Source of the DNA: a virus
Lineage: Duplodnaviria > Caudoviricetes
IMG/VR virus record: IMGVR_UViG_3300049454_000023
Coordinates: 1 to 53,090 of that record
Reading direction: 5' to 3' (one strand)
Length of the DNA stretch: 53,090 bases
Part shown: in pieces, positions 15,992 to 53,090 of the stretch
Layout: every line of letters starts with the position of its first letter
Numbering within the stretch: the first letter of the stretch is position 1
Translations under genes and position numbers: made by a program
Notes under the pieces: generated by a model
What the model saw: only the letters and a program-made list of their open reading frames with translations
What the model was told of the DNA's origin: nothing
Database searches by the model: none

Positions 15992-16041
15992 CGCTTGCTC
16001 CCTTAGTCGGCAACTCGACGGCTTCGATGGTGTAGTGGGGG

Positions 16042-16516: not shown

Positions 16517-16529
16517 TGACGTTCGCCAC

Positions 16530-19824: not shown

Positions 19825-19860
19825 GGCCACAGTCTATCGGAGTCGCTTGCGCTTTGTCAA
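19822..19860 (-). promoter_or_regulatory. Major early promoter with the 14-bp box
   Basis: TTGACA-AAGCGCAAGCGACTCCGA(18)-TAGACT-N6-ATGAACCG. Confidence 0.75.
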
Positions 19861-24051: not shown

Positions 24052-24133
24052 GAAGCGATCCCTTCGTGTCCGGCCCCGGAGCGTGGATGCGCTGCCGGGG
24101 CATTCTTGTACATGGACCGACATTCTAACCGCC

Positions 24134-36503: not shown

Positions 36504-36559
36504 ACGCGCCAATTGTTAGCGGAACTCGCCGCCCCCCCTTCGAGGCTAGAATGCTAGGC

Positions 36560-38806: not shown

Positions 38807-39085
38807 CTAGCGACGCAGGATTTCTATCCAGTCGTTGGTTAGGCAAGTTTCTAGGTCGCCCTGCTCGCTCTCTTTCGAAACCTCGCGCACCACGTCGAGC
38901 ACTAAGTCCCACGTCTCGGCGCTGACATGCTTAACCGAAGCCGTCGTGACACGCAACCGAAACTCGCGGTTTAGGTTTTCGTCGAACCCAGCGTCAAGCC
39001 TGACGTTGAACAGCGGCTCGGCTTCGCCTTCGTAGCGATGTTTCTCTAGGTCTTCGAACAGGCCGATAGCTTCCTGAGCATCCAT
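38807..39085 (-). CDS. Moron-like hypothetical protein
   Basis: Own CATAAT -10 and strong SD AAAGGAGG; inserted between neck genes. Confidence 0.65.
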   Translation of the reverse strand: MDAQEAIGLFEDLEKHRYEGEAEPLFNVRLDAGFDENLNREFRLRVTTASVKHVSAETWDLVLDVVREVSKESEQGDLETCLTNDWIEILRR

Positions 39086-39181
39086 CGGTCCTCCTTTGAG
39101 TAGTGGTCACCCGCTGGCACCGTTACCGGCCACGGCGGGATCGGATAGAGCCGATTATGCCATGGCCGACGGACGCCCCGC

Positions 39182-39658
39182 CTACCACCGCTCCGGGTAG
39201 TCGCGCCCGATCAGCGGATAGCCATCGTTGAAGCTGCCCGCTGCAACCGCGCCAGCATTGCCCCCACCTTCTTCGCCACCGGTCCCCTGGCCGCCGCATT
39301 CCTCAGAGACCGCCGAGGTGAGCGACTTCATGCGGGTGTCGAAGAGCTTTTCCAGGCGCGCCGCCGCAGAGCCGCGCGCTTCGGCCTGCTCGGGCCAGTA
39401 GGAGGTCTCGATGATGACGGCCGCCAGGAGCGAGGCCGCAGCCGTAGCGGATTGCACGAGCTGGTCGTTGCAGGGTTCGCCGCCGACGCTTGCCGCGACG
39501 TGATCGACCGCCTGGGCGATGATCCGTTCGACCTCGGCTTTGGTCGGCCGCGTCTGCTCCGTGAAGGTCCCGGCCTCGCCGCCACCGGGGATTTTGGTTC
39601 GGGCGCGGATCAGGGCCGCTACGTCGTCAACGGTGGGCGAGAAGGTGGCTTCGCTCAT
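39182..39658 (-). CDS. Head-tail adaptor
   Basis: PT.DDVAAL...F...TRPT...V...I; position after the MCP. Confidence 0.7.
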   Translation of the reverse strand: MSEATFSPTVDDVAALIRARTKIPGGGEAGTFTEQTRPTKAEVERIIAQAVDHVAASVGGEPCNDQLVQSATAAASLLAAVIIETSYWPEQAEARGSAAARLEKLFDTRMKSLTSAVSEECGGQGTGGEEGGGNAGAVAAGSFNDGYPLIGRDYPERW

Positions 39659-39671
39659 GGGGCCAGTCTAG

Positions 39672-39840
39672 AAGAAGGCGGCAGCCCCGCGAGCCGGTCC
39701 TAACATCGTCCGCGGGGCCTTAATCCCATCGAGTTCTCGCTGCTCGCCCTCGCCGGTTAGGTGCCCCTTCCCGGGTCTGAACGCCGCCGTGATTAGGACT
39801 GGCGGTAGCGCGCTGGGGAACGTGGGAACCGCGTTGCACC
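39672..39840 (-). ncRNA. Candidate structured ncRNA (RNA-C) with kissing loops
   Basis: Promoter TTGCGT-N17-TATAAG at 39845-39873; two hairpins with complementary loops GUCCUAA/UUAGGAC. Confidence 0.5.
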
Positions 39841-39855
39841 CCTTCTTATATGCGC

Positions 39856-39936
39856 CTATCTTACAAAACGCAAGCCAACCGCGCAAGGCGGGGCGATCAT
39901 CGGGGAGAAGGTCGCCTCGGCCATGAGGCCAGTCTA
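39856..39936 (-). pseudogene. Relic duplicate of the adaptor gene 5' end with its promoter
   Basis: TAGACT-ggcctc-ATG MAEATFSP versus TAGACT-ggcccc-ATG MSEATFSP at 39658. Confidence 0.7.
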
Positions 39937-39942
39937 GGCGGC

Positions 39943-40128
39943 ACGGCAACGCCCCCTCTTGTTGGCGGCTCATGAACCACCGAGGGGGCGCGTATGCCGT
40001 TGTCTCGCTGCCGATCCCGCCCACCGCGGAGACGTCGCGGCTTCGATTGCTGGCAGCGCCGGGGGCCTACATCGGGTTCGGCGTACTCCGAAGAGGGCCT
40101 AGACCGGGTTCGGGGTTCCCCCAACTGG
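39943..40128 (-). ncRNA. Candidate structured ncRNA (RNA-B) downstream of the MCP
   Basis: Promoter TTGCGT-N17-TAGGCT at 40134-40162; several stems, ending in the long hairpin 39943-40000. Confidence 0.45.
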
Positions 40129-40205
40129 CGGACAGCCTACAGAACGCAAGCGACCGACGCAAGGGTCGGCCACCGGCGGAGCAGGAAACAGTGCGGAAGG
40201 AAGTT

Positions 40206-41138
40206 CTAGGAGTCGGTGCCTTCGAGCATCCAGACCGCAGAGGCGTCGAAGGCGGCGTAGACGGGGCGGCACTCAAGGACGTAAACGTCGGTTTTGCGGA
40301 TGCCCTCGCGGACGAACTCCTGCGCCATCGGCAGCTCCCAGCCGATCACGCCGGGGGCGCCAGACTTGACGAAGAGGACTTTGCCTTTGTCGATCAGCGG
40401 CGTCGGGATGATCCGGTTGATGCCGTATTTGGAGAGCATCCCATTCAGGGAGAGGGTCGTGCCGATGCCGGGGTAGAAGAGATCGAGGAAGAGGTTTTCT
40501 TCCGTGTTCATGATGATCGTGTCGGGACGAACGCCGACCTTGTCGTCAAGGAACTGTTTGAGGACCAGCGCCACGTCGCGGTGGGGCATTTTCAGCGGAT
40601 CGACGTTCTGCACGCCCGATTCGTGGGCTTCGTGCCAGTTGACTTTCGCTTCGCCGACCCGTTCCCATGCTTCCACCGCGTCGAGCAGAACCTCGATGCC
40701 ACGCCGCTGGATGATGTCGGCGAAGGAGTTGGCCGCCTTCGTGAACTGGTTGCGGACGGCGATGATGTTGTTGCGCTGTTTCGCCTCGTCGGTGACCTCA
40801 ATCGAACCGGACCAGGACTCGGGGCGGCGGATTTTCGGTTCGCGGCGCTCGCTCTCCATGCGCGGAGCCTCGGCGCCAGGGGCACGGGGGGCGGGCTCGG
40901 TACCGGCGGCGAGGAAGAAGTCTTCGGGGAAGGTCTCTTCGACGTGGACCGCGCCGCCCTGCACGGGGGTACCGAGGCTGCCAAACACGCTCTCGATGAA
41001 GTAACCCTCGTCCTCGGCGACCAGCGACCGGATTAGCGCCGGGATTTTGGTCGGCGGGTTGACGTAGGTGTCGACCGTGACCGTCGTTCCCTGGACGGTG
41101 GCCCCACCGAGCGGCTGCGCTACTGGATTCTGCGGCAT
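40206..41138 (-). CDS. Major capsid protein
   Basis: 310 aa after the protease and decoration genes; RAPGAEAP, PDTIIMN and C-terminal P...D..AV..L.G. Confidence 0.85.
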   Translation of the reverse strand: MPQNPVAQPLGGATVQGTTVTVDTYVNPPTKIPALIRSLVAEDEGYFIESVFGSLGTPVQGGAVHVEETFPEDFFLAAGTEPAPRAPGAEAPRMESERREPKIRRPESWSGSIEVTDEAKQRNNIIAVRNQFTKAANSFADIIQRRGIEVLLDAVEAWERVGEAKVNWHEAHESGVQNVDPLKMPHRDVALVLKQFLDDKVGVRPDTIIMNTEENLFLDLFYPGIGTTLSLNGMLSKYGINRIIPTPLIDKGKVLFVKSGAPGVIGWELPMAQEFVREGIRKTDVYVLECRPVYAAFDASAVWMLEGTDS

Positions 41139-41168
41139 GTTCTCTTAGTTCCTGTCGCTCGTCGTGGG

Positions 41169-41945
41169 TTAGTAGAAGTCGACCTGGATGTAGTCGCCCG
41201 CTTCTTCGGCGGACGTAAGGGCTTTGCCGACCGCGTTGGCGCCACCGGTTGAGTCGGTGCCGCCCGCGAGGGACGTTTTGGCGACCGCAGCGACCACTCC
41301 AGCACCGGAGGACGCGCCCGTGTTGGCGGCTTTGACCAACTGGGAGGCAGCGTCATGCTCGGCTATGGCGGCGATGACCAGCGTCGCCGTGGAAGTGATT
41401 TCGCCTGCGCCGACTTCGTTGGTCGCGGCGATCACGGTGATCGTGTCGCCGTCAACGTCCACCGACAGGGTTTTGCCTTTGCCGGTGTTCAGGATCTCGA
41501 CGGCGAGATCGTTGCCGTCCTCGCCCGCCTCTTTGGCGGTGAAGGTGATCGCGTTGTTGTCGGCGACTTTGCCGGTTTCGAGTTTCGCCGCAACCGCAGA
41601 GTCGGCCACTACCGCTTTGCCGTCTGCGCCGACCGCGATATCGACGGGGGGGGAGGCGTCGATTGCCTCGCCAGCCTCGACCCAAGGGATCGAGCCGGTG
41701 CGAACGCACTCGACCAGGAGGTCAACGGAAGTCGGGTCTTCGACGTTCGGTTTCGCGGAGTCGCGCTGGGTCACGCCGAAGGGCTTTGGGTCGCCAGCCT
41801 CGGCGTGCGCGGCCAGATAGCTGCGGTCGGCGCCGTAGCCAGTAATCGCGACGAAGCGGGCTGCTTTGAGCTGATCGCCAGCCAGTTCGCCGTCAGGGCG
41901 AACGCTGACGTTCTCGGCGGGCTTGAATCGGGCGATTTTCTCCAT
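41169..41945 (-). CDS. Capsid decoration/cement protein (DUF2190-like) with inserted domain
   Basis: PFGV...G.....AG.AI....I.V.ADGKAV...AVGKAL..A..AGD.I.V. Confidence 0.7.
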   Translation of the reverse strand: MEKIARFKPAENVSVRPDGELAGDQLKAARFVAITGYGADRSYLAAHAEAGDPKPFGVTQRDSAKPNVEDPTSVDLLVECVRTGSIPWVEAGEAIDASPPVDIAVGADGKAVVADSAVAAKLETGKVADNNAITFTAKEAGEDGNDLAVEILNTGKGKTLSVDVDGDTITVIAATNEVGAGEITSTATLVIAAIAEHDAASQLVKAANTGASSGAGVVAAVAKTSLAGGTDSTGGANAVGKALTSAEEAGDYIQVDFY

Positions 41946-41948
41946 GAT

Positions 41949-42509
41949 CTACGCGGCCGCCTTTCGCGATCCGTGGCCTGGGAAGAGCGCGGCCATGTCG
42001 TCTTCGGACACCGCGACCGGGTCGGTCGCCGAGGAACCGCCGTGGCCGATCTCATCGACCGGGACCAGGCCGGTCGGCAGCGCGGAGAGTTCAGCCTCGG
42101 TCGCCTCGGGGGCGCCTTTCAGCTTCGTCTCCCATGCGGCCCTTGAGGCCGGGGTTATTTTGCCGTCCTTGAGCGCAGCCTTCAGGATCGTCTCGCGGTG
42201 CGCGGCGACCTGCTGATCGCGGGCCGCCCGACCCGCGGCGGCATCGGCCTGAAGCTGGCTGAGGACCGTTGAGTCGACCGGCGTGGTCGTCTCCTCCGGC
42301 GTCTCGGCCGGGGTCTCCTCGGGGGACTCCTCCGGCGGGTCGCCCTCGGGCGTCTCCGGGGTCTCCTCCGGGTCGGCCGGAGCGGGGGGCTCAGTCGGGG
42401 GCGTGTCCGGCTCGGCCTCCAGGGCGGCGGCGATCTGCTCGTCCGTCGCATCCTCGGCGAGGTCCAACCGCTTGCGGAGGGAGGTCAACTGCGAGTCGGA
42501 AAGTTTCAT
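41949..42509 (-). CDS. Nested in-frame scaffolding protein (Mu gpZ-like)
   Basis: Internal ATG (MKLSDSQLTSLRKRLDL) behind a promoter near-identical to the sheath promoter. Confidence 0.65.
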   Translation of the reverse strand: MKLSDSQLTSLRKRLDLAEDATDEQIAAALEAEPDTPPTEPPAPADPEETPETPEGDPPEESPEETPAETPEETTTPVDSTVLSQLQADAAAGRAARDQQVAAHRETILKAALKDGKITPASRAAWETKLKGAPEATEAELSALPTGLVPVDEIGHGGSSATDPVAVSEDDMAALFPGHGSRKAAA

Positions 42510-43484
42510 GCCGGAATTGTTAGCGGGGTTGCCGCCCCCCCCCTTCGGATGCTCTTTGCGCTCGGCTGGGACGGTCTGCTCGCGGGCCGCAAACGCTTTC
42601 AGGGTGCGGCCTGAGTCGGGCGCGGTCTGAGCGGCGGCGCTGAGGACGGCTGCGGCCTCTGGGGCGGGCTGGAAGGTCTGTAGGACGCGCTCCGGCTCGC
42701 CGAAGGTGATGGTCTGGTCGCCGTCGGTCTGGATCGGGACGCGCCACAGGGAGCCTTCGTCGTCGTCGGCGATGATCACGTTCGGGTCGACGCGGACGGC
42801 TCGCGCCCACCACCAGTAGCGGTCGTCGGTGCAGAACTCGGCGTAGAAGGTGTCGATCACTTTGTCGACATCGGCCTCTAGGGAGACGGCGGTTGGCACG
42901 GCCCCCATGCTGACAGCGATGGGAACCCCCCCGGCCTCGGGATCGCCGGTGACGATCACGCCCGCACCCTCGCTGAGTCGGAACTGCAAGTCCTCCAGAT
43001 CCTTCACCGCTGGCGCCTGGACGCCGAGCAGGGCGCAGCCCGTGAGGACGAAGCTGTAGTGCTTGCCGCCGGGGGTCTCTACGTCCCAGCGGGCTTCGAG
43101 TTTGCCGCCCGCGCCCTCGCTGATTTCGTAGGCACCCTCGATTGAGCGCGACGGGTAGAAGGCCGGTGCGCCTTCGGCGAGCCACTTCGGCATGTAGACG
43201 TAGTCGCCCATCGCCGTGGCGCCGTCGTTGACGAGGCGCATGTTGGCAATTGAGCCGAAGGCCGGTTCGCCGTCGAAGAAGGGATCGTGGCCGGGGTCGT
43301 CCGGTTCAGCGAAGCGTGGGTCCGTGTGGCCGATCTTCAGCCGCGCAGGCGTGATCAGCGTGTCTTCCCCGGCGCGCACGCAGTCGGCGATGTGCTCCAG
43401 CGTCAGGGTGACGGGGCCGCCCGCGCTCGGCCAGGCCATTCCTGCCGAGCAAAGCTCTACGTCCTTAATCGTGACGAACTCCAT
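41949..43484 (-). CDS. Mu gpI-like prohead protease/scaffold
   Basis: KIGH, YPSRSIE and LTGCALLG..PAV.DL motifs; C-terminal A..DGKI.PA scaffold pattern. Confidence 0.85.
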   Translation of the reverse strand: MEFVTIKDVELCSAGMAWPSAGGPVTLTLEHIADCVRAGEDTLITPARLKIGHTDPRFAEPDDPGHDPFFDGEPAFGSIANMRLVNDGATAMGDYVYMPKWLAEGAPAFYPSRSIEGAYEISEGAGGKLEARWDVETPGGKHYSFVLTGCALLGVQAPAVKDLEDLQFRLSEGAGVIVTGDPEAGGVPIAVSMGAVPTAVSLEADVDKVIDTFYAEFCTDDRYWWWARAVRVDPNVIIADDDEGSLWRVPIQTDGDQTITFGEPERVLQTFQPAPEAAAVLSAAAQTAPDSGRTLKAFAAREQTVPAERKEHPKGGGGNPANNSGMKLSDSQLTSLRKRLDLAEDATDEQIAAALEAEPDTPPTEPPAPADPEETPETPEGDPPEESPEETPAETPEETTTPVDSTVLSQLQADAAAGRAARDQQVAAHRETILKAALKDGKITPASRAAWETKLKGAPEATEAELSALPTGLVPVDEIGHGGSSATDPVAVSEDDMAALFPGHGSRKAAA

Positions 43485-43519
43485 GGCCGGGAGTGTGCCG
43501 AATGTAGACGACCCCGCCT

Positions 43520-43804
43520 GTCCCTTTCCGATTCGGGACTCAGCGAGGTCGTAAGTGATGGCGGTGCCCCGTCACCGTGCTCTGATCACCCGAAGGCGAA
43601 CGGCTGGCCCATCCTAGCGTCCAGAACGTCGACTAGCGGTTTTTGGCTCTGCGCCTACGTCCCCGGGCGCTTTGGGACTCGAAACCGGCCGATTCGTCGC
43701 CTTCATGCCTGAATGCGTGCTTATTTGGCTTGCTAGAGCGAAGTTGCCGGGCGCCGCATCTGGCGGCAACGGCGGCGGCCAAGCGAACCGCGACCTACCC
43801 GGCG
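43520..43804 (-). ncRNA. Candidate ~280-nt structured ncRNA (RNA-A)
   Basis: TACACT -10 at 43810-43815; cUUCGg hairpin with a G-U pair, many stems, a pseudoknot; no convincing ORF. Confidence 0.5.
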
Positions 43805-43817
43805 GGACGAGTGTAGA

Positions 43818-44051
43818 TCAAGGTCTTGCGTCGAGTAGCTTGTCAACGCGCAGGCCCAGAGCGAGGAACGGCGGCTTGTTCAACCCGAGGGTGACGCCGT
43901 CGACCATGAATTCGTGACCGTTGGCGCACTCGACGCGCGGGGTTGGCTCAAAGTTCGACCAGTCGAGGTCCGGCGGGGTTGCCTTCACGAACCGCTCATC
44001 GCAGACCGGGCAGTTCGGCTCGACCGCGTCAACGTTGGGCGGCTTCACCAC
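43818..44051 (-). CDS. Small zinc-ribbon protein
   Basis: CPVC...CANGH. Confidence 0.55.
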   Translation of the reverse strand: MVKPPNVDAVEPNCPVCDERFVKATPPDLDWSNFEPTPRVECANGHEFMVDGVTLGLNKPPFLALGLRVDKLLDARP

Positions 44052-44395
44052 GGTGGATCGTCTCCGAACATCGCCGGATCACCGCTCGGCTGCGGTTTCG
44101 GCGTCGGCCCATCCAGCGCCATCGCGTAGGCGTTGCGCAAGCCCGTGCCCTCCTCGTCGTCGTGGTAGCGGGCGATGCCGCCTGCGGGGCGGGTGACGCG
44201 GAAGCCGACTGGCTCGCCATCGCAGGTCGGGCATTTCCACGGCACGTCGCCCTCCATCGTTCCAATTGGCTCTTCCCCGGCCCCGCCGCATCCAGGGCAA
44301 ATTTCCCGCTTGACCCTGGAGCCGTTCTTGAAGACGACTTCGCCGTCGCGCTCCAGGGCTTCGCGGAGGGCGCGGAGTTTCGGGGTCGGGATCAC
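44045..44395 (-). CDS. DnaJ-like zinc-finger protein
   Basis: CPGCGGAG...CPTCDG. Confidence 0.6.
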   Translation of the reverse strand: MIPTPKLRALREALERDGEVVFKNGSRVKREICPGCGGAGEEPIGTMEGDVPWKCPTCDGEPVGFRVTRPAGGIARYHDDEEGTGLRNAYAMALDGPTPKPQPSGDPAMFGDDPPW

Positions 44396-44622
44396 AGTCG
44401 ATCCTGCGGCGCATCCCCATATCGCTTAACCAGCCAATCGGGGACGTGTATGCGTGGGTCGGCCTGATACGCATATTGGGCGATTATCCAGGCTGCCTGC
44501 ACCTGACCAGCGGCCTGGTAGATAGCACGCACATCCTCGCGAGCATCGTCGTCGGGCGCGAGGTCGTCCATCGCCTGTGCGCAGTAGTCCAGCGCTTCAT
44601 GGGCCTCTATCAGTCGGCTCAC
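44392..44622 (-). CDS. Hypothetical protein
   Basis: GTGA coupling. Confidence 0.55.
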   Translation of the reverse strand: MSRLIEAHEALDYCAQAMDDLAPDDDAREDVRAIYQAAGQVQAAWIIAQYAYQADPRIHVPDWLVKRYGDAPQDRL

Positions 44623-44804
44623 CGCCGCACCACCGCCTCCGCAGGCCGCAAGTAGAGGTCGAACTGTCGGCGCTCCGGGACCGACCAGGAGGGGGGTGGG
44701 GGCGGGACCGGAATGTCGGCCTCGTCTACGAGGTAGTCAAAGGGTCGGGTGCGGACCGCCCAGGTTGGGAAGTGCCAAAGCAGGTTGCCGAGCCAGAGCT
44801 TCAT
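44619..44804 (-). CDS. Hypothetical protein
   Basis: TGATG coupling. Confidence 0.5.
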   Translation of the reverse strand: MKLWLGNLLWHFPTWAVRTRPFDYLVDEADIPVPPPPPSWSVPERRQFDLYLRPAEAVVRR

Positions 44805-45052
44805 CAGTCGAGGGTCCCGTTGTAGGCCATCGCACAGCGGATCAGGTGGTCGTAGTCCCCTTCCATGCACTGCTCGCGGAATAGCTCGATCATCCACGTC
44901 GGGTTCCCTTTGCGCTTTAGCGGTCGGGTGATCGCTGCCATGATCGACCCTGCGTTGCCGTCTACGCCGACCAGTTCAACCTCGGCGGGCACTAGGTCGT
45001 CGGGAACCTGAATGCCATCTGCCACTGCGTGGGTGCTGCGTTCCTCGCTCAT
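44804..45052 (-). CDS. Conserved phage protein (LVG.DGNA..I...GDYDHL family)
   Basis: Recognisable motif; SD AAAGGAG. Confidence 0.7.
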   Translation of the reverse strand: MSEERSTHAVADGIQVPDDLVPAEVELVGVDGNAGSIMAAITRPLKRKGNPTWMIELFREQCMEGDYDHLIRCAMAYNGTLD

Positions 45053-45078
45053 GCGACTCCTTTCGATTGGCTGCGGTT

Positions 45079-45118
45079 CATGCCCCGCATCCTACCGAAC
45101 TCAGTTGCGCTTTGTCAA
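45079..45118 (-). promoter_or_regulatory. Boxed SigA-type promoter with ATGAACCG start
   Basis: TTGACA-AAGCGCAACTGAGTTCGG(18)-TAGGAT-N7-ATGAACCG. Confidence 0.7.
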
Positions 45119-45285
45119 TCCGCCTGCTGCCGAGCCTGCGCCCGCTTCGCCGCTTCCAGCCGACATAGCCGATCTGTCGAGGGGTTGCGGATATAGGCGA
45201 GTTCGCGGTGGGCGACAAGCTGCTCGACGGTGTCGATTTCGAGGCCGCGACGGCGGGGGCGGTCCTTCTTTTGCCGCCGCGCCAT
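45115..45285 (-). CDS. Small basic hypothetical protein
   Basis: MARRQKKDRPRRRGLEID...; TGATG coupling. Confidence 0.5.
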   Translation of the reverse strand: MARRQKKDRPRRRGLEIDTVEQLVAHRELAYIRNPSTDRLCRLEAAKRAQARQQAD

Positions 45286-45533
45286 CAGGACTCCAGTGCT
45301 TCTCGGCCTAGCTGGATTCGCTCCAGCGCCGAGAGGGCGATCTGTGGGCCATCACCAGCGTGTTCGGGGGAGAGCGCACCAATCGCCTCAAGGGCTTCCT
45401 GGAACCGTTCTGCTTCGGTGTCTGCGCGGCTGTACCGACGCATCCATGCGTCCCGGTCAGCTTCTAGACGACGAAACTCGTCCTTAAGCGCCTCGTTATC
45501 ACTCGACCAGACCGGGTGCGCAGCGGCCTCCAT
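45285..45533 (-). CDS. Coiled-coil hypothetical protein
   Basis: SD GGAGGA. Confidence 0.55.
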   Translation of the reverse strand: MEAAAHPVWSSDNEALKDEFRRLEADRDAWMRRYSRADTEAERFQEALEAIGALSPEHAGDGPQIALSALERIQLGREALES

Positions 45534-45534
45534 T

Positions 45535-45714
45535 CTAATCCTCCGCCTTTTCGGCCGCGGCCACTTCGCGGCCTAGGTCGGCGATGAGCGCGTAGGCATC
45601 GGCGCTCTCCGGCTCGCACTCGACACCATCCTCTGCGCTGGGGCAGCCGTCGGTCGAAGCGATGGGCCAGGCTACACGGTGCCGACGGCAGTAGCGGAGG
45701 AAGAGGCCCGTCAT
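45535..45714 (-). CDS. Hypothetical protein
   Basis: MTGLFLRYCRRH...; ATGA coupling. Confidence 0.5.
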   Translation of the reverse strand: MTGLFLRYCRRHRVAWPIASTDGCPSAEDGVECEPESADAYALIADLGREVAAAEKAED

Positions 45715-45941
45715 TCGTGCGGCGTCAGGGTCCGGGCGTGGGCGGCTGCAGCCTTTAGCTGGTCGGCGAGGTTGTCGGCGTCGTCGGTGGTGAACGCCGA
45801 GATTGCGAAGGCATCGGTGGCCCGACTGGCCTCGCCCGTTTGGGTGAGCGCGAAGAAAACCTCCGCGTCGCCCTCGTCAACGTTGACCTCCAGGCTCTCG
45901 CCGTACTTGTCGATGATCGCTTTGCGGGCGCCGAAGCTCAT
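45711..45941 (-). CDS. Hypothetical protein
   Basis: ATGA coupling. Confidence 0.55.
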   Translation of the reverse strand: MSFGARKAIIDKYGESLEVNVDEGDAEVFFALTQTGEASRATDAFAISAFTTDDADNLADQLKAAAAHARTLTPHE

Positions 45942-46105
45942 GGTCGCAACGCGACTTCGACGATTTTCTCGGCGTCGCTGCTATACGAACAAGCACTCGC
46001 CGCTTCCAGCGCCATCTTGTAGCGCTCGCAGAGCGCCGCCAGCGCTGCGGCCTCCTCTCGCGCCTTCATAAACTCCTCGAACAGCTTCTCCTCGGTTTCT
46101 AGCAC
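45938..46105 (-). CDS. Hypothetical protein
   Basis: GTG start after SD AGGAGG. Confidence 0.55.
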   Translation of the reverse strand: MLETEEKLFEEFMKAREEAAALAALCERYKMALEAASACSYSSDAEKIVEVALRP

Positions 46106-46130
46106 GGCTCGCCTCCTGGTCGGTTACGGA

Positions 46131-46425
46131 TCATGGCGCGGCGGGTGGGTCAACCCAAAGGTTGCGATCCTCATCCCAGACGCGGCCTGAGGGGGTAGTC
46201 GTCTCCAGCTCGACGTTTACCTGCTCGGCAGTGACCCGAAAGTGGCTAGCGACTCCTGACTTTTCGGCGATCTCGATAAAGCAAGAGGCGCAGACGAGAT
46301 CGCCGAAAATTGGATCGCCGTTGATCGAGCCGCCGCGCATGACCGCGTTCCAGAGCGGCGACGGAGCACCCCAGATCGTGTTGCCTCGCCCGCAGCGATG
46401 GCAATGCTCGAAGCCCTCGGTCATG
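46131..46425 (-). CDS. Zinc-binding phage protein
   Basis: CHRCG...W.APS.LWN.VM...VCASCF; leaderless TTGCGC-N17-TACGCT-N7-ATG. Confidence 0.65.
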
Positions 46426-46465
46426 CAGGGCAGCGTAGCGCTTTGCTTGACGAAGCGCAAGCGGC

Positions 46466-48913
46466 CTACACGTATTCGGCGACACCGGTCCCGCGACAAC
46501 GCAGTCCGGCCAGGCACCCGACGTAGCCTCCAACCGGGTAGTCCGCGCGCAACTCGGCCATCGAGGCGTATTCGGTGCCGTCGATGCCGTTGCAGGCGGT
46601 GCAGGTGTTGCCATCGAGGATCTCCGAGGCGTAGAGGCTGGTCGGTTTCGCGGCTTCCATGTAGCTGAACCGCCCCTGGTTGTAGCTCTGCTGGGTCGCG
46701 CCGCCCAACTGCTCCTCCAGGGCGGCATCGCTCAGCCCCTCCAGGTGTTCGCGCACAAGCCCGGCGGCGGCTTCCGGCTCCAGGGCCGAGACTGCTGCGG
46801 CTTTCTTGCTCGCCGAGGTCGAGAGGCCAGCGGCCAGCGTGAGAGAGGCCGCCTCGGCACGTTCACGCACGGTGCGCTCCAGTTGGTCGCCGTCAATTTC
46901 TGGCTCTGCGAGTGCGATCCCCGGTTTTTTGACTCGATTTTGGCCCGATTGGTCGCCGTCGCTCGCAGCCACCCCAGTCTGCGCCTCATGCTCTGCCCGC
47001 GCGCTATTAACGCCTTCCTCGGCAATCTTTAGCATCGGCTCGGCGAGCACCTCGGTATCAACGGGGTCGCAACTAAGGGTGGCGAGCTTTGCGCTATCGC
47101 CCTCTGCTGCCTCGACCTCGGCTACTAGCTGAGCGATCTGCTGGGCCTGTCCCTCGCGATATGCGGCGACCAGCGTGTCTCGGCCGCTGAGGAAGGTGTC
47201 CTCCATCGCGGCGAAGTCGACTTGAGCGGCGACCTCGAAGGCGAGCGGCTGGCGCTTTAGGTCGCGGTCTGGAAGCGCGAGTGCCATCGTCGGGGCCAAG
47301 GTGCCATCCGGTTGGCGAAGCAGCGTGCCATCCCCCAAGAGCTGGTCCCTTGCGCGGCGAGCGGTTCCGTTCTTTGGGTCCGACCCGGCGAGACGGGCAG
47401 CCTGCGGCCAGCTCATCGGCGCAGTCACGACCTCGGCGAGCCTCTCGGCGAGCTTGGAGCGCTGAGGCTGTGAGGCGCCCTCTGCGGCTTTGGGGGGCGT
47501 TTGCGGGGGTTCGGGCGTGGGAGGAAGGTCCGGGGCCGCAGGAGGCGCTACAGCGGGTTCAGGCGCGTTCTTCTGCCCCGGCACCTTCCAGCGCTGCTCG
47601 ATGTAGGCGCGAAGCTCCGGCGTGACGAGGACAAGCCCTTCTTTAACGGCGGTCGCGAGATCGGTGAAAGCCACGTCGGCGGTCTCAATGCGGGTGTAGG
47701 TGATCTGTGGGGACGCCTGGTCGGGGCCGAAGTTTCGCTTGACCTGTTTGTCGATGAACGCCTGGGTGGCCTCGCAGTACCAGTCCGCGATTGCGCCCTG
47801 GAACTCGATGGCGCGTTCGGCGAAGGTGTCGCCCAGCGCGCGGGCGCCGGATGCCGCGTCGCCGCCGAGGTTGAAAAGCATCTGCATCAGCGCCTTCGCC
47901 ATCTGCTCATCGTGGTAGCGAATCGAGGCGATGGTGTCGGGGAGGGTGCCTTCGACGCCCGCGATCCGCAGTTTGCCCGGGCCGGCGCCGCCACCTACCG
48001 TTGAGGCGCGGATTTCTTCGGCGCGCTGGGCGAGGGATTCGATCTGCGGCTGGGAGGCCGAGGGGTCGACCTCAAACCAGGGGATGCCCATCGCGTTGCG
48101 CTCGTGCTTGACGGCGTCGACACGGATCAGGGCGTCCTTGACGAGGAAGTTGCGGTAGCAGGCCCGCAGCACCGAGCGGCCGACCTGATCGCCGTCGTCG
48201 GCGGTGTCCCAGAGGTAGGTGAGCAGGCGCGATGCCTCCAGGGTGCGAATTCCGCCCACAATGCCGCCCATCACGCGCTGGCCGCCGGTGATCCCAATCC
48301 CCCCGGCCATCTGTTCGATTGCCTCCAGGTTGCCGTGCTCGTCAGTGCGGATGCCGATGATCGAGCGAGGCGGGCGGGTGCCGAGCTTCTTCAGGTGCAG
48401 CAGGCCGTCCTCGCGCAGCTCCAGGACTTCCTCGAAGTGGTAGTGCCCCTGGCCGACCGCCCGCAGGGAGTGGCTGAGGTGCTTGTCGTGGTTGAAGCCG
48501 CCTCGGCGCGGAACCGTGGTCTCGTCCCCTCGCACCGGCAGGTTCAGGTCTTCGTGGGCGAGCGCGATAGCTCCCGGCTGGGCGTCGACCGGGTTCAGTT
48601 CCCAGCGGAAGCGACGGGTCGGCAGGAAGGTCGCCAGTAAAAGGCCCTTGACCTGCGCATCGGTGGTTTCCATGCGCTCGTTGACTTCGACTGAGCGCGG
48701 CCACTGCATCTCGACGGCGAACTCGCGGTCGTCGATGAAGTAAGCCCAGTCGGGTCGGCCCCCGAAGGCACCCATGGGGGAGAGGACGGCGCCGGGGACA
48801 CCCTGCTCGGTGGTCGGCGCCGCACGCACCATCTCTTTGGAGGCGGCCATCGAGACTCCGGCCTTGGCTGCCATGCGGGCACGGGCGGCATCGATGGCTG
48901 GGCGGTCGGGCAT
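46466..48913 (-). CDS. Portal protein (DUF935/Mu gp29-like) fused to wHTH-like and MuF-like domains
   Basis: G.SVLR.CY...L.K....ER..MG.P, I.YHD..M.K and G.RALG portal motifs; C-terminal SEILD.NTC..C..IDG...C..RCRG. Confidence 0.85.
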   Translation of the reverse strand: MPDRPAIDAARARMAAKAGVSMAASKEMVRAAPTTEQGVPGAVLSPMGAFGGRPDWAYFIDDREFAVEMQWPRSVEVNERMETTDAQVKGLLLATFLPTRRFRWELNPVDAQPGAIALAHEDLNLPVRGDETTVPRRGGFNHDKHLSHSLRAVGQGHYHFEEVLELREDGLLHLKKLGTRPPRSIIGIRTDEHGNLEAIEQMAGGIGITGGQRVMGGIVGGIRTLEASRLLTYLWDTADDGDQVGRSVLRACYRNFLVKDALIRVDAVKHERNAMGIPWFEVDPSASQPQIESLAQRAEEIRASTVGGGAGPGKLRIAGVEGTLPDTIASIRYHDEQMAKALMQMLFNLGGDAASGARALGDTFAERAIEFQGAIADWYCEATQAFIDKQVKRNFGPDQASPQITYTRIETADVAFTDLATAVKEGLVLVTPELRAYIEQRWKVPGQKNAPEPAVAPPAAPDLPPTPEPPQTPPKAAEGASQPQRSKLAERLAEVVTAPMSWPQAARLAGSDPKNGTARRARDQLLGDGTLLRQPDGTLAPTMALALPDRDLKRQPLAFEVAAQVDFAAMEDTFLSGRDTLVAAYREGQAQQIAQLVAEVEAAEGDSAKLATLSCDPVDTEVLAEPMLKIAEEGVNSARAEHEAQTGVAASDGDQSGQNRVKKPGIALAEPEIDGDQLERTVRERAEAASLTLAAGLSTSASKKAAAVSALEPEAAAGLVREHLEGLSDAALEEQLGGATQQSYNQGRFSYMEAAKPTSLYASEILDGNTCTACNGIDGTEYASMAELRADYPVGGYVGCLAGLRCRGTGVAEYV

Positions 48914-49057
48914 TGGCACCCGACAATACGGAAAGGTGCCGACCCCAACGAAGAAGCTCCGACCCACGCCCTGTTTCACGCGCCTCTCGGCAATGAAGTC
49001 AGCGGTACGTGCAAATCGGAGCCGCCCGCAGGTTATCACCCGTGCCACAATCCCGCG

Positions 49058-49264
49058 ATGGAACGGCGGCGCCTCAAACTCGGCATGAAGGTCGGGGTCA
49101 GACCCGCCAACCTCTCCAAGTCCCTCGGCCTGCGTACCGCGACGGTGGTCGGCCTGATCGACCGGCCCGGCTATCGCCAGCACCGGGCCATCGTGCGCTA
49201 TGAGGACACTGGCAAGCGGGTCGAGCTTCCGCTTTCGCGCCTGGCGCCGATAGAGCGCCCCTAG
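49058..49264 (+). CDS. Small SH3/KOW-like protein
   Basis: LKLGMKVGV...ATVVG...VRYED...LSRL; leaderless CACAAT-N6-ATG. Confidence 0.6.
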   Translation: MERRRLKLGMKVGVRPANLSKSLGLRTATVVGLIDRPGYRQHRAIVRYEDTGKRVELPLSRLAPIERP

Positions 49265-49272
49265 AACGCCGA

Positions 49273-49303
49273 CGACCCGCCATGCGGTGAGCTAGGCGGG
49301 TCG
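49273..49303. terminator. Hairpin after the SH3-like gene
   Basis: cgacccgcc / ggcgggtcg. Confidence 0.5.
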
Positions 49304-49385
49304 TGGCGATGAACCGAGTCAACCCGTGGCACAGGACGAACCACGATGAGACGCGATGGGCTGAGACTACCACTCCGGTCAGCGC

Positions 49386-49428
49386 TTGACAAACCGCAAA
49401 GGGAGGCTTACGCTGAGCACCTGAACCG
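49386..49428 (+). promoter_or_regulatory. Boxed promoter of the plus-strand operon
   Basis: TTGACA-AACCGCAAAGGGAGGCT(17)-TACGCT-N6-CTGAACCG. Confidence 0.7.
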
Positions 49429-49450
49429 TTGTCAACCATTGGAGGATTCG

Positions 49451-49810
49451 ATGATTAACTACGATCTGATCGGGCAGGGGCTGCTGCACCCGATTGCCGC
49501 CAACATTCTGGCCGCCTATGAATTCCACGCAGGTCGGAAGCTCTCGCCAAACGAACTATCGGCGATAACCGATGAGGCGCTGGGCAACGTCAGCTACCAC
49601 GTCTCGATGCTCTCGGGCCGCCATCCGAACTCTCGCTTCAAGGAGAACCCAGTGCTGGAGCTGGTCGACACTCAGCCGCGTCGCGGTGCCGTCGAGCACT
49701 ACTACGCGCTAAGCGACGCCGCGAAGCTGACCCCGGCCGTGCTACGCGATCAGTTGGATCGGTTGCGGAACGGCGAGCTGGACGCAGCAGAAGGGGAGGG
49801 TCGGCGATGA
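49451..49810 (+). CDS. ArsR/HTH_20-like winged-helix regulator
   Basis: HP....IL...SPNELS....LGNVSYHV..L...LELVDTQPRRGAVEHYY. Confidence 0.8.
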   Translation: MINYDLIGQGLLHPIAANILAAYEFHAGRKLSPNELSAITDEALGNVSYHVSMLSGRHPNSRFKENPVLELVDTQPRRGAVEHYYALSDAAKLTPAVLRDQLDRLRNGELDAAEGEGRR

Positions 49811-49989
49811 GCGGCGGGGGCCTGTTCGACAATCTGTTTATGGCGGCCTGCGTCGCCTTGGGGAGCACCCTCATCCTCCACGACCTAGGGGTCGTGCTGG
49901 GGACCGAGGGCGCAATCGGACTCGGCGTGATCTCGGCCGCCCTCGGCATCACGCTAGCCGCCATCGCAAACCGAGGGGAGGGGCGATGA
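49807..49989 (+). CDS. Small two-TM membrane protein
   Basis: Two hydrophobic helices; ATGA coupling. Confidence 0.6.
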   Translation: MSGGGLFDNLFMAACVALGSTLILHDLGVVLGTEGAIGLGVISAALGITLAAIANRGEGR

Positions 49990-50084
49990 GGCGGCACCCA
50001 AGCCCCTGGGCGATCCTCGCGGTGCTCGTTTTCGAGATCGCCGTCGCCGTCCAGGTCTACGTGCTTGTGAAGCTGATCGTATGA
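49986..50084 (+). CDS. Small membrane peptide (32 aa)
   Basis: MRRHPSPWAILAVLVFEIAVAVQVYVLVKLIV; ATGA coupling. Confidence 0.55.
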   Translation: MRRHPSPWAILAVLVFEIAVAVQVYVLVKLIV

Positions 50085-50245
50085 GCGAGAAGACGCCCAA
50101 CCCTGGTTCTGAGGAGGCGCGAGCGCAGGGCTGTACCTGCCCGATACTCGACAACAATCACGGCAAGGCAGCGCCATGGCCGCCCGACGGATGGTGGATG
50201 GTCGAGGGCTGCCCGGTGCATAACCCGAAGGAGGAAGCGAAATGA
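50081..50245 (+). CDS. Conserved small phage zinc-binding protein
   Basis: PNPGS.EA...GCTCP..DN.HG...W...GCPVH. Confidence 0.65.
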   Translation: MSEKTPNPGSEEARAQGCTCPILDNNHGKAAPWPPDGWWMVEGCPVHNPKEEAK

Positions 50246-50406
50246 GGGCGCTCCTGATCGGCTTCGCGATTTTGGTCGTGCTCGCGATCATCATCACGCC
50301 CGTCTCCTATCTGACCATGCCCGACACGGCCTGTATGGACGCCTGGCGCGAAGACCGTGCCACCCATGCCTGTTGGGCCGAACACAACGAATGGAGTCCC
50401 GAATGA
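50242..50406 (+). CDS. Small membrane-anchored/secreted peptide
   Basis: MRALLIGFAILVVLAIII... with a 2-Cys external part; SD AAGGAGG. Confidence 0.55.
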   Translation: MRALLIGFAILVVLAIIITPVSYLTMPDTACMDAWREDRATHACWAEHNEWSPE

Positions 50407-50999
50407 ACCCCGCAACCCGACCCACCCTGGTCGTCTTTGCCGCGTTGTTTGCGGTGATCGGCTGCCTGTTGGCGACCTCGGAGTCAAAGGGGGCGGCTGC
50501 CTCCCCTAGCGCCTCCCAAGAAGCGCTCTACAACGGGTGGCTTGCCGAATCAGCGATGCCGCTGCCGAAGGCGACGATCAAGGTCCAGCCGCGAACCTGC
50601 CCGGAGTTCCATGCGACCCTCTGCGCGCATCCGGGCCGCTCGGTCATCGTGATCCCGGACCCGACCTACCTGACCGAAGTGATGGCGAGCGGGCGCACCT
50701 ACGGGTCTACGCGAGAAATCGCAAGTGAGCGCTTTGGCCTCTACCACGAGGTCGGGCACGTTATCGACCTAGGAGAACATCGTGGCCCCCGGCGTTACCG
50801 ACGGGCTTTCTCGCGCCTGATCGGCGGGGACGGGCCGAACGCCGACTTTGAGCTATTGGCAGACGCCTATGCCTTGTGCTCGTTCAGCCGGACTCAACTG
50901 CCAGCACTTGGGGTAAATGCCATCAGCTTCTACGGCTACAAGCCCTCGGTGACGTTGCACAGAAAGGTCTGCCGAGTGCTGGCGGCAGGGATGCGCTAA
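50403..50999 (+). CDS. Secreted zinc metallopeptidase-like protein
   Basis: Signal peptide; YHEVGH (HEXXH) plus downstream ELLADAY. Confidence 0.65.
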   Translation: MNPATRPTLVVFAALFAVIGCLLATSESKGAAASPSASQEALYNGWLAESAMPLPKATIKVQPRTCPEFHATLCAHPGRSVIVIPDPTYLTEVMASGRTYGSTREIASERFGLYHEVGHVIDLGEHRGPRRYRRAFSRLIGGDGPNADFELLADAYALCSFSRTQLPALGVNAISFYGYKPSVTLHRKVCRVLAAGMR

Positions 51000-51562
51000 G
51001 CGGCGACAAGAAGGTAGGCAAAGCCGGTGTTCGCGGCGTAGCATTTGCCTTCGGGACTGGTTTCCCGCCTCGCTCGCATTTTGATCGTGTGTTTGGCCGC
51101 ACTCAGCGTCAGCAGGTAGAACTGCGGGACCGTGGCTCGTAGGACGTTATTTAGGTTCGTCACTTCACCCGCGGTTTCGTCGATCCTGTCTCCTAACTGA
51201 GCGCTAACCCGAGCCTCCCGCGTCTGGTCGGCTGCGTCAAGGCGTATCGTGCCCCGGGCACGGATGATTGCCCCGGTCGACGAGGGTGATGCCTCAAGGT
51301 CAAAGACGGCCGCGATTAGCAGCTTGCTTTCCACGGCCGGGGTCAGTTCAAGGGACCCACCCGAGAGCGGTACGTCTTCAAAGCTGGCCGAGAGCGCTAG
51401 ATCGCTTTCGGCAGCCTTTAAGCCGATGGTCGGCGCTAGGTTCCGCGACCCCCATTTCAGCGTGTCGAGCAGGGTGGCGAGGGCTTTGATCTGGGTTGGA
51501 GCGTCGGGGGCGTCGGAATCCTCCGGGTAGGGGATCGCGTTGACGGTGGTGGTTTTGGACAT
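50996..51562 (-). CDS. Minor tail/tail-fibre protein (displaced from the tail module)
   Basis: N-terminus TT...IPYPEDSD.PD....KALA..LD, typical of actinophage fibre attachment domains; beta-rich C-terminus. Confidence 0.6.
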   Translation of the reverse strand: MSKTTTVNAIPYPEDSDAPDAPTQIKALATLLDTLKWGSRNLAPTIGLKAAESDLALSASFEDVPLSGGSLELTPAVESKLLIAAVFDLEASPSSTGAIIRARGTIRLDAADQTREARVSAQLGDRIDETAGEVTNLNNVLRATVPQFYLLTLSAAKHTIKMRARRETSPEGKCYAANTGFAYLLVAA

Positions 51563-51568
51563 TGTCGC

Positions 51569-51670
51569 CTACCTATCGAACTGGTTCGCCGCGTGCCGGT
51601 AGAACTTGATCCCGCCCTGGATGGCGAGGACGAGGGCGGCACCGAGGGCGATTCCGAGGAGGAAGGTCAT
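51569..51670 (-). CDS. Small membrane peptide (33 aa)
   Basis: MTFLLGIALGAALVLAIQGGIKF...; late-type leaderless promoter. Confidence 0.55.
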   Translation of the reverse strand: MTFLLGIALGAALVLAIQGGIKFYRHAANQFDR

Positions 51671-51707
51671 GGGCGGCAGCCTAGCGGGCTGGGCCGACCC
51701 CTGAAAT

Positions 51708-51754
51708 GACAAAACCCCCCAAGGTGCGGGAGGCGCCAGGTGGGGGGCTTTGTC
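51708..51754. terminator. Terminator-like hairpin
   Basis: gacaaaacccccc / ggggggctttgtc. Confidence 0.55.
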
Positions 51755-51803
51755 GAGCAGTTAGTCTGCCCGGTATCTCCATACCGACCCTCACCCTACT
51801 AAG

Positions 51804-51968
51804 TTGACCGGCCGCCCCAAGCGGAGCGCGTCGAGCCGCTACTTCAAGCGCGTCCACCGCGACCGCGAGCGGATCGCTGCCGAAGAACGCAAGGCACGCG
51901 GAGAGCCGAACGAGCAGGAGCGCTGGGCCGATGAGCTAGTCGAACGTCTGCGGGGTAAGGGCAAGTAG
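51804..51968 (+). CDS. Small basic protein (54 aa)
   Basis: TTG start gives MTGRPKRSASSRYFKRVHRDRERIAAEERK...; protein-like codon pattern. Confidence 0.5.
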   Translation: MTGRPKRSASSRYFKRVHRDRERIAAEERKARGEPNEQERWADELVERLRGKGK

Positions 51969-52256
51969 GTCCGGCGATGCGTGGTAGCCCACGGCGCCCG
52001 TGCGAGCCAAGTAGCTGGGCGTAAAACCAGGAGCACACCGCCGAATGTAGCTGCTTAGAACCGCGTAAGAGCGCGGGGGATGAGGCAGGCGCGGGGCAAT
52101 CGCCCAAGGCTTATTCGCCAAACCCGTAGTTGGACCCTGGAGCCGATGAGGAAACGAGGGGAAACCGGACGGTCGGAGGCGCGCCAGCAGAACGGAACTC
52201 GATACCTCGTAGGAGCGGAGGAAGGCTGGTTAATGCCTTCAGCCGCTTACCCTACC
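51969..52256 (+). ncRNA. Candidate multi-stem structured RNA/origin element (RNA-D)
   Basis: Closing stem gtccgg/ccggac enclosing at least 5 hairpins, followed by a long hairpin at 52209-52255. Confidence 0.4.
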
Positions 52257-52265
52257 CAGCCGGGG

Positions 52266-52294
52266 TTGACTAAGCGCAAGCCCCTAGCTAAGAT
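52266..52294 (+). promoter_or_regulatory. Boxed promoter with no downstream ORF
   Basis: TTGACT-AAGCGCAAGCCCCTAGC(17)-TAAGAT. Confidence 0.7.
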
Positions 52295-52299
52295 CCACG

Positions 52300-52426
52300 C
52301 CGGGTAATCGGTGAGTGCCCGTCAGAGGGGCGCGGGGGCGGTTTCGACACTGTCCGTACCTCGCCGTTAAGCCGCTCGCGCAGCAGGAGCGGAAAGCGCT
52401 TTCACCCGCAACCGCCGGACTGCTGC
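52300..52426 (+). ncRNA. Candidate ~125-nt multi-hairpin, pseudoknotted sRNA (RNA-E)
   Basis: Three hairpins inside ggtga/tcacc; loop GCAGCAG complementary to 3' CUGCUGC. Confidence 0.5.
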
Positions 52427-52552
52427 CTACCGCACCATCACCCGCACGAACTCCAGGATCAGCAGGAGCGAGATCGCGACCAAGAGCGCTACGGCCGCGA
52501 CGAGGACGTAGAGGGCAGCGCGCTCAAGCAGGGCGAATAGCTTCTCGGACAC
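52427..52552 (-). CDS. Small single-TM peptide (41 aa)
   Basis: MSEKLFALLERAALYVLVAAVALLVAISLLLILEFVRVMVR. Confidence 0.55.
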   Translation of the reverse strand: MSEKLFALLERAALYVLVAAVALLVAISLLLILEFVRVMVR

Positions 52553-52563
52553 GCGGCGAGAAG

Positions 52564-53090
52564 CTACACGTTGCTCGCCACGACTGCGACGAGCGCGACA
52601 AGAACTCCGACCGCGCCGATAACTACCCCGATGATCGCCCCGCTCGCGCTCTGTTGCTCACGACGCTGCCCTTCGGCTTCACCGCTGCCGACCGCACGCT
52701 GCTCGACGGTGGTGAGGCGTTCCTTGAGATCGGCAACCTCGCGGCGCTGGCCACCTAGGGCGGTCTCGAAGGTCGAGCCGAGCTGCTCGATGGACTTCGT
52801 GGTCGCGGCCTCGCTCTTGGCGATCGAGCGCTCTGAGGCGATGGTCTGCTCTTTGACGGCCTCTTTGGCGGCACTGAGCGCGGCGTCGACGGCGGCCTTC
52901 GTGTCCTCCTTCTGCTCTACGCGCTGGCGCTCGGTTTGGTTCAGCTTGTCTTTGACGCCGCGGAACTCCTCCTGGCGCACGGCGATCTGTCCCTCGATGC
53001 GCTCGTTAAGCAGTCGCTCTAGCCAGGCGATCCGCGTCTCGATCAGCTCTCGGAGGTTGAGAACCTCGCGTTGAAGGGCCTCGGTGGTGA
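52564..53090 (-). CDS. 3' part of the junction-spanning coiled-coil/membrane-anchored protein
   Basis: Heptad-rich A/E/K/Q segment ending in hydrophobic AIIGVVIGAVGVLVALVAVVA. Confidence 0.75.
   Translation of the reverse strand, partial: TTEALQREVLNLRELIETRIAWLERLLNERIEGQIAVRQEEFRGVKDKLNQTERQRVEQKEDTKAAVDAALSAAKEAVKEQTIASERSIAKSEAATTKSIEQLGSTFETALGGQRREVADLKERLTTVEQRAVGSGEAEGQRREQQSASGAIIGVVIGAVGVLVALVAVVASNV
52964..53090 (+). repeat. 127-bp terminal direct repeat (copy 2)
   Basis: Identical to 1-127. Confidence 0.95.

Follow-up and report, generated by a model that had tools for sequence, protein, structure and literature searches.

The window analysed here is the complete virus record IMGVR_UViG_3300049454_000023, 53,090 bases long. 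It is a metagenomic, high-GC myophage genome (guanine plus cytosine, GC, 61-70%), with a 127-base identity between its two ends (terminal overlap). We describe five segments, named A to E, that are poor in open reading frames (ORFs) and that a first-pass annotation had taken for one co-regulated repertoire of structured small RNAs. With a probability of roughly 0.6, we read them as stretches of non-coding DNA at which transcription units of the head region meet, and not as one RNA system. The five segments are mostly variable spacer DNA at terminator-promoter junctions. New here are a small, unnamed conserved element (X, within segment C) and one weaker candidate (the core of segment D), in an uncultured phage family.

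Nearly all large genes are carried by the minus strand, head and tail genes included. The main landmarks are as follows.

1532-2941, minus strand: terminase large subunit
31190-33706, minus strand: tape measure
35067-36512, minus strand: tail sheath
40206-41138, minus strand: major head (capsid) protein, with its stop at 40206
41949-43484, minus strand: head protease/scaffold, 511 residues, with its ATG at 43484
46466-49183, minus strand: Mu-type portal

The phage is without a close cultured relative, as megablast of 39000-53090 gave no DNA match in cultured phages. A search with the capsid protein returned 13 phage records (Gordonia, Mycobacterium, Corynebacterium), all at 26-27% identity. 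A viral collection gave 12 related loci, and five of those records were retrieved whole or to their limits (G001-G005). Searching with an alignment of the protease added one locus from metagenome contigs (same position as in G001), recovered seven already known from viral contigs and found zero additional relatives among genome contigs. Conservation of the segments was checked against up to 13 related sequences.

Gaps without genes and mostly without unusual folding

All five segments fall in the gaps 39659-40205, 43485-43817 and 51969-52426, which are among the longest of the genome in a crude gene call. Codon-phase GC periodicity is lost there and no ORF reaches a codon log-odds of 8, our cut-off for coding, which bears out the earlier placing of the segments in genuine non-coding DNA. 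Two other stretches, 15992-16529 and 23517-24133, are also uncovered by the crude gene call. These contain ORFs of 104 and 218 codons, so that they may in fact be coding, with an unusual codon usage.

The segments could instead hold unannotated small protein genes, a reading that we find highly improbable. ORFs of 39 to 118 codons are indeed present in them, as everywhere in DNA of 65% GC, and the differences between two copies of the D core (see below) are uneven by phase. However, none of these ORFs attains the log-odds cut-off, the two longest have no Pfam match and the longest has no tblastn match in 50,697 phage records. The segment sequences are also missing in relatives. Each of the six frames of the D core has a stop in at least one of its two copies; a frame kept among homologues, which had been named beforehand as a sign against an RNA, therefore does not come into question there.

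Folding was compared with dinucleotide shuffles for the five segments on both strands, giving 10 folds. Nine of them are no better than the shuffles, with z-scores between -1.14 and +1.09. The segments had been described as dense in stems, with shuffled controls proposed as the check on this; by that check the density does not go beyond chance. The sole outlier is the minus strand of B, at z -3.12, with none of 200 shuffles equally stable (-2.33 when folded from its predicted start, and 0.04 for the plus strand). Segment A gave -0.26 on the plus strand and +1.09 on the minus strand (+0.67 from its predicted start), and E gave -0.13 and +0.41, respectively. GC-rich spacer DNA thus folds well by eye and no better than shuffled sequence, and in this respect the finding is mostly ordinary.

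No known RNA family was recognised, in agreement with the first-pass annotation. Rfam 15 had 0 matches at gathering scores in the whole window and likewise 0 in eight related loci. At E values up to 10, three regions gave six weak matches, the best with 18.8 bits against a cut-off of 50. ARAGORN predicted 0 genes for transfer RNA or transfer-messenger RNA in the window. An 8-mer said to begin two of the RNAs (those of A and E) occurs three times in the window, where about 3.8 occurrences are expected at 65% GC. Neither the 8-mer count nor a covariance model of X revealed a motif common to the segments beyond chance. The idea that E is a copy of X was rejected, since the model misses E and the shared 8-mer is at chance.

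Proposed junctions between transcription units

TANNNT is the consensus of the -10 hexamer in Actinobacteria, and hairpin terminators without a strong U tract are found in the same group. Hexamers of this type and GC-rich hairpins frame segments A and B at the junction downstream of the capsid gene, where the following features are read in the direction of transcription.

40134-40171, minus strand: hairpin with T-rich tail after the capsid stop (40206), the tail ending in a -10-like TANNNT at 40134-40139
39943-40128, minus strand: segment B, unconserved spacer with a long hairpin (39943-40000) at its end
39931-39936, minus strand: second -10-like hexamer, 6 nucleotides (nt) before a truncated 22-codon copy of a gene start (39856-39924)
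39874-39894, minus strand: second, degenerate capsid-downstream hairpin, with a T-rich tail and a hexamer lacking the final T (39845-39850)
39672-39840, minus strand: segment A, unconserved filler between junction copies, with a terminal hairpin (39683-39719)
39665-39670, minus strand: -10-like hexamer, 6 nt before the ATG (39658) of a 158-residue gene (39182-39658), a leaderless-type start

At this junction there is a tandem duplication, and segments A and B are its unconserved fill. The junction is present twice, as a 36-nt direct repeat that is 83% identical and spaced 266 nt apart. The inner copy has both the hexamer and the ATG and agrees with the product of the next gene at seven of its first eight residues, then enters the degenerate hairpin and ends after 22 codons. 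It is 93-97% identical to the gene start of G005 and L006, and 83% to the functional copy of the window itself. As it is nearer to relatives than to its own gene start, we read it as a recombination scar with a relative. The interiors of the two units are only 33-47% identical, so A and B were rejected as diverged copies of one RNA. A has no match in 13 related sequences and B has none below E 0.04.

The spacer between the capsid gene and the next gene was compared in 11 loci that have both genes, and it ranges from about 100 nt to 2.7 kilobases (kb). It measures about 100 nt in L014, 155-235 nt in L006, L009, L010, L012, L013 and L015, and 450 nt in L004, rising to 1.5 kb in L011, 2.0 kb in L008 and 2.7 kb in L005. 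Across the relatives just two parts of it are conserved: the hairpin with its tail, and the hexamer with the ATG of the next gene. The same hexamer and ATG arrangement precedes the orthologue of gene 39182-39658 in L004, L006, L009, L010 and L012-L015. The spacers show no sign of selection on sequence or fold. In L005 (5930-8340), the capsid junction carries two inserted genes, for a 297-residue protein with collagen-like triplet repeats and for a 401-residue protein.

The capsid-downstream hairpin has a 9-pair stem in all seven aligned copies (both copies of the window and five relatives). Its G-U pairs fit the sense strand only, four pairs have double changes, and the tail is T-rich and conserved, yet it was not listed by a terminator scan. 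The GC-rich hairpin of an intrinsic terminator is found here and again to the right, near the end of the window.

51714-51734, minus strand: intrinsic-terminator-like hairpin with an 8-pair stem and a T run
51678-51683, minus strand: -10-like hexamer, 7 nt before the ATG (51670) of a leaderless 33-codon ORF

The order of hairpin, hexamer and start is established at these junctions, and the hexamers would serve as promoters. A GC-rich hairpin, in some cases with a T-rich tail, would close one transcription unit. Next would come a lone -10 hexamer of the TANNNT type, and a new unit would open 6-7 bases further on, mostly at the ATG of a leaderless gene. In this reading, such junctions are also hot spots for recombination, at which DNA is inserted, duplicated or deleted. 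Within the window, 14 ORFs of at least 30 codons have a TANNNT hexamer 6-7 nt before an ATG or GTG and no ribosome site, including those starting at 39658, 38762, 38243, 25850, 51670 and 46424.

This arrangement resembles that of leaderless genes in Actinobacteria, in which TANNNT likewise precedes the start by 6-7 nt, a ribosome site is missing and the hairpin upstream is GC-rich, although here the starts and ends of transcripts are predicted from sequence alone. In mycobacteria, leaderless mRNAs are frequent (about 14% of genes; PMC7148126).

A 15-nt box makes up a second class of promoter. With up to three mismatches it has 14 matches, against 1.12 expected, and none of 100 shuffles reaches 14. 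Eight copies have at most two mismatches, among them the following.

9500-9514, minus strand: box copy
10850-10864, minus strand: box copy
11112-11126, minus strand: box copy
19846-19860, minus strand: box copy
45104-45118, minus strand: box copy
49386-49400, plus strand: box copy
52266-52280, plus strand: box copy

At 17-18 nt after seven of the eight best copies there is a TANNNT-type -10-like hexamer, and relatives have the box too, with 7-9 copies in each of G001-G004 (complete or large). The box is the -35 part of a family-wide promoter. Downstream of the boxes at 10850, 19846, 45104 and 49386 there is a similar leader with a ribosome site, and promoters of this class would open units with such a leader. 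The box could double as an operator for a phage regulator. One box-like match, at 46447 on the plus strand, is the reverse strand of a hairpin that stands before a -10-like hexamer and the leaderless start at 46424 (46424-46461). It is probably not a plus-strand promoter, because there is no -10 element at 17-18 nt.

The first-pass annotation had placed promoters with a -35 element, a 17-nt spacer and a -10 element before several segments. One such promoter stands, at 52266-52294 before segment E, where the -35 and -10 elements match at 9 of 12 positions with a spacer of 17 and the -35 belongs to the 15-nt box; the others reduce to lone TANNNT-type hexamers. A sigma-70 scan of 39000-53090 gave two promoter-like sites against 1.4 expected, one of which adjoins a segment. 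What had been called degenerate box copies by A and B proved to be the T-rich tails of the conserved minus-strand capsid-downstream hairpins, on the opposite strand.

We judge it very unlikely that the five segments together form one undescribed system of functional phage small RNAs under common regulation, be they decoys, antitoxin mimics or regulators. They are all ORF-poor, each has at least one -10-like hexamer at an edge, the minus strand of B folds better than shuffles, and relatives carry non-homologous, hexamer-preceded non-coding inserts at the same junctions. Against this, nine of ten folds are ordinary, and A, B, E and about 260 nt of C are without counterpart in the related sequences, so that even close relatives lack the whole or the greater part of four of the five segments. 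There is no shared motif, as the X model finds no second copy and the 8-mer is at chance. The segments have promoters of at least two classes, and therefore there is no sign of common regulation. Parts of the idea survive, in X, which is conserved with compensatory changes, in the D core, which is shared with one relative and shows some covariation, and in E, which has a promoter of the family-wide type upstream and no ORF.

The conserved element X and the D core

Segment C lies between the protease/scaffold gene and the gene upstream of it, and contains a single conserved part.

43810-43815, minus strand: -10-like TANNNT hexamer, 7 nt before the first paired base of X
43802-43747, minus strand: element X, a three-way junction (outer helix and two hairpins) of 56-62 nt, the sole conserved part of C
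43485-43746, minus strand: rest of C, about 260 nt, unconserved, with -10-like hexamers at 43611-43616 and 43492-43497 (the latter 7 nt before the protease/scaffold ATG at 43484)

Element X (56-58 nt in these copies) is 88-90% identical in G003 and G004, and 83% identical in G005. The same architecture is present in L005, L007 and L008, where the sequence is largely different. The fold is the one of minimum free energy in all seven carriers (the window, L004, L005, L007, L008, L009 and L010), and in all seven the two hairpins are closed by an outer helix of 6-10 pairs and the sense fold beats the antisense fold in stability. Their z-scores range from -0.99 to -4.93. The second hairpin has an identical 5-nt loop in five of the seven, while its stem varies. 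The remaining 260 nt or so of C have no match in relatives and an ordinary z of -1.40.

In an alignment of five copies, 95% of the cells are paired, compared to 38-60% with slid partners, and 5 of 21 pairs are double-changed. The covariation score reaches 0.29; shuffles give 0.12 +/- 0.035, and none of 500 is as high. A covariance model built from four copies detects the diverged copy of L007 with 32.3 bits (E 0.0015). The model found no second copy in the window (320 kb searched), the next-best match having 22.8 bits (E 0.12), and a pattern scan returned just three relatives, all already known. Among nine genomes with the region, X is missing in L006, which has a 30-nt spacer, and in L014, which has other hairpins and a terminator.

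In six of the seven carriers, exactly 7 nt separate the TANNNT hexamer from the first paired base of X downstream of it, and in L007 the hexamer is without its last T. X lies anywhere between about 1 and 190 nt from the upstream stop, and between about 22 and 260 nt from the protease ATG. As the hexamer offset is fixed while these distances vary, X is predicted to be the 5' end of a transcript. Its conservation and structure are supported by the comparison of carriers; it would probably be transcribed from the hexamer toward the protease/scaffold and capsid genes. In that position it may act in cis as a leader, by stabilising the RNA or by changing elongation or termination.

We weighed whether X might instead terminate the upstream operon or form the 3' end of its transcript, or be a site on the DNA for a regulator of the protease/capsid promoter, and consider this rather unlikely. 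A stop codon does precede X in all carriers. In L009 and L010 the element covers the place of the -35, its end being about 5 nt ahead of the -10-like hexamer of the leaderless protease gene, and in three of seven carriers the antisense strand folds almost equally stably. The spacing to the 5' hexamer speaks for the leader instead, being constant while the distances to the stop and to the protease ATG are not. Moreover, the stems covary despite sequence change, G-U pairs would be A-C on the other strand, and no T run follows X.

A further observation was made in two of the carriers. In L008 (2400-2625) and L007 (825-1060), about 200 nt without an ORF lie between the X-like element and the protease start and are about 85% identical. 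The stretch starts after a -10-like hexamer and ends with a hairpin and a T run, 5 of its 50 predicted pairs are double-changed, and it has no Rfam match.

Among known phage RNAs, the put RNA of phage HK022 consists of two adjacent stem-loops with no closing helix, and a 6S leader transcript is made from the lambda late promoter. Like these, X would be a short structured RNA at a predicted phage promoter, ahead of genes with terminator-like hairpins in front of them. In contrast to put, X has a closing helix, which makes it a three-way junction, and no sequence likeness; the put layout of two hairpins without a closing helix is not that of X. X also belongs to a high-GC phage family, and an effect of it on termination is proposed. 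X therefore resembles promoter-proximal phage leader RNAs in position only.

The second candidate lies in segment D.

52036-52222, plus strand: D core, with conserved blocks spanning 52040-52197

The D core is 62% identical to G002:41040-41191. In G002 the copy is located between homologues of the window genes 12082-12414 and 11107-11703, that is, at a different locus and in line with the local genes. RNAalifold gave 43 pairs, seven of them with double changes, and one 5-pair long-range stem has three of these. Against column-shuffled alignments the z-score is -2.71 for the plus strand (2 of 300 shuffles as good) and -1.85 for the minus strand (15 of 300). A third copy did not turn up: two pattern scans recovered G002 alone. 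Matches to two looser patterns in L047, L048 and L049 were dismissed as chance, as nothing is shared outside the typed blocks, and a blastn search of phages with D gave a single 29-nt match (E 0.9), also taken as chance. These data point, weakly, to the D core as a second candidate structured RNA that may move between loci as a module.

Several observations weigh against the account given so far. For the spacers, the sense strands of B (z -2.33) and of the 359-nt L004 spacer (z -2.38) are more stable than their shuffles, and the hexamer after the capsid hairpin is present in four of four genomes with a spacer (the window, L004, L009 and L010) and in neither of two without (L006 and L014). Spacers of this kind may therefore be transcribed units instead of inert fill, although those of L009 and L010 fold no better than shuffles (z -0.86 and -1.09, sense strand). 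For X, the copy of the window has a z of just -1.05, with 29 of 200 shuffles as stable, and five of its outer-helix cells are scored as unpaired in the model-fitted alignment (a one-base register shift). The covariation of X comes from five sequences, in an alignment fitted to the structure. Finally, the support for D comes from two sequences, whose differences are distributed unevenly by coordinate phase (4, 15, 15), and single-sequence folds of D are ordinary (z +0.77, +1.33, +0.60 and -0.32).

Segment E and the inserts of the family

Homologues of the genes 239-661 and 50996-51562 are 350-455 nt apart in relatives, compared to about 1.6 kb in the window. The difference is an insertion of about 1.2 kb that is unique to the window phage, and segment E lies inside it. 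The insertion holds a 193-codon ORF, a 41-codon ORF, a 47-nt hairpin, E, a rightward box promoter, D and a possible 54-codon ORF, and the region is closed on the minus strand by the terminator with a T run at 51714-51734.

51804-51968, plus strand: possible 54-codon ORF for a basic protein (uncertain), log-odds 10.6, just upstream of D
52266-52294, plus strand: box-type promoter (-35, 17 nt, -10), with a predicted start near 52302
52301-52426, plus strand: segment E, a non-coding RNA candidate, with a three-way fold (52301-52374) and, directly beside the stop of the 41-codon ORF, a 47-nt hairpin (52380-52426)
52427-52552, minus strand: 41-codon ORF for a hydrophobic peptide, codon-position GC 0.78/0.33/0.88, log-odds 17.3, convergent with the box promoter
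52564-52963 with 1-182, minus strand: 193-codon ORF, coiled coil and hydrophobic C-terminus, crossing the window ends

The 54-codon ORF found only itself among 5.8 billion proteins, had no tblastn match in phages and no Pfam match above the cut-off. The 193-codon and 41-codon ORFs are missing from close relatives. Two viral contigs (L045 and L046) have a copy of the 193-codon ORF that is 51-56% identical, beside a 374-codon ORF, and neither E nor D is present in them. The 374-codon ORF was considered as a lysis enzyme, and this was dropped as it has no Pfam match. At the site of the window insertion, G002 (1-540) has a gene-free, non-coding junction insert of about 330 nt, which begins with a tail like that of the capsid hairpin and a -10-like hexamer.

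The case for E is its promoter and its convergent position relative to the peptide ORF. The proposal that E is a non-coding RNA keeps its footing in the family-wide promoter type upstream and the lack of an ORF, but E has no unusual fold and no match in any relative, L045 and L046 included. E would be a non-coding transcript driven by the box promoter and converging on the 41-codon membrane-peptide gene. Because of this convergence, E may most simply be an antisense or transcriptional-interference RNA.

Type I toxin-antitoxin pairs with convergent antisense RNAs are known from prophages, for example in Bacillus subtilis. E and the 41-codon ORF could be a pair of this type, the antisense RNA pairing with the 3' part of the peptide mRNA, which we regard as unlikely. 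As in those systems, a small hydrophobic peptide gene here faces a convergent predicted promoter for a putative non-coding RNA that would overlap its 3' end. The 41-residue product has a long hydrophobic core and charged ends and is, like type I toxins, under about 60 residues, the consensus promoter is 125 nt from the stop of the peptide ORF, and the hairpin at 52380-52426 would be common to both transcripts. The overlap of the two predicted transcripts depends on both of their ends, around this hairpin. Unlike in type I systems, the peptide gene shares its operon with a larger gene, following the 193-codon ORF by 11 nt with no promoter of its own seen. The pair is in no relative, and toxicity is putative.

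Morons and mosaic boundaries are known from tailed-phage genomes. The capsid junction is similar to a moron site, in that a fixed head-gene junction receives inserts that differ in length and content and are flanked by a terminator and a promoter. It differs in that the insert, here and in several relatives, is gene-free, non-coding DNA behind a -10-like hexamer. One could go further and suppose that this actinophage-like family carries promoter-driven non-coding cargo at its junctions (RNA morons), with X as a new cis-acting class of three-way-junction leader, D as a mobile RNA and E as an antisense regulator. In such a scheme, X would act on the transcription or stability of the protease/scaffold-capsid transcript, for instance as an antiterminator. 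We hold this to be possible and on the doubtful side, and prefer the reading of the five segments as non-coding junctions.

The junction plan should aid the annotation of a phage family that is seen in metagenomes alone, and it points to a host of actinobacterial type. X is a candidate cis-acting phage RNA, absent from Rfam, at a predicted transcript start before the head genes; to our knowledge, few cis-acting phage RNAs are known in high-GC hosts. The D core would be a second candidate RNA of the family, one that appears to move between loci.

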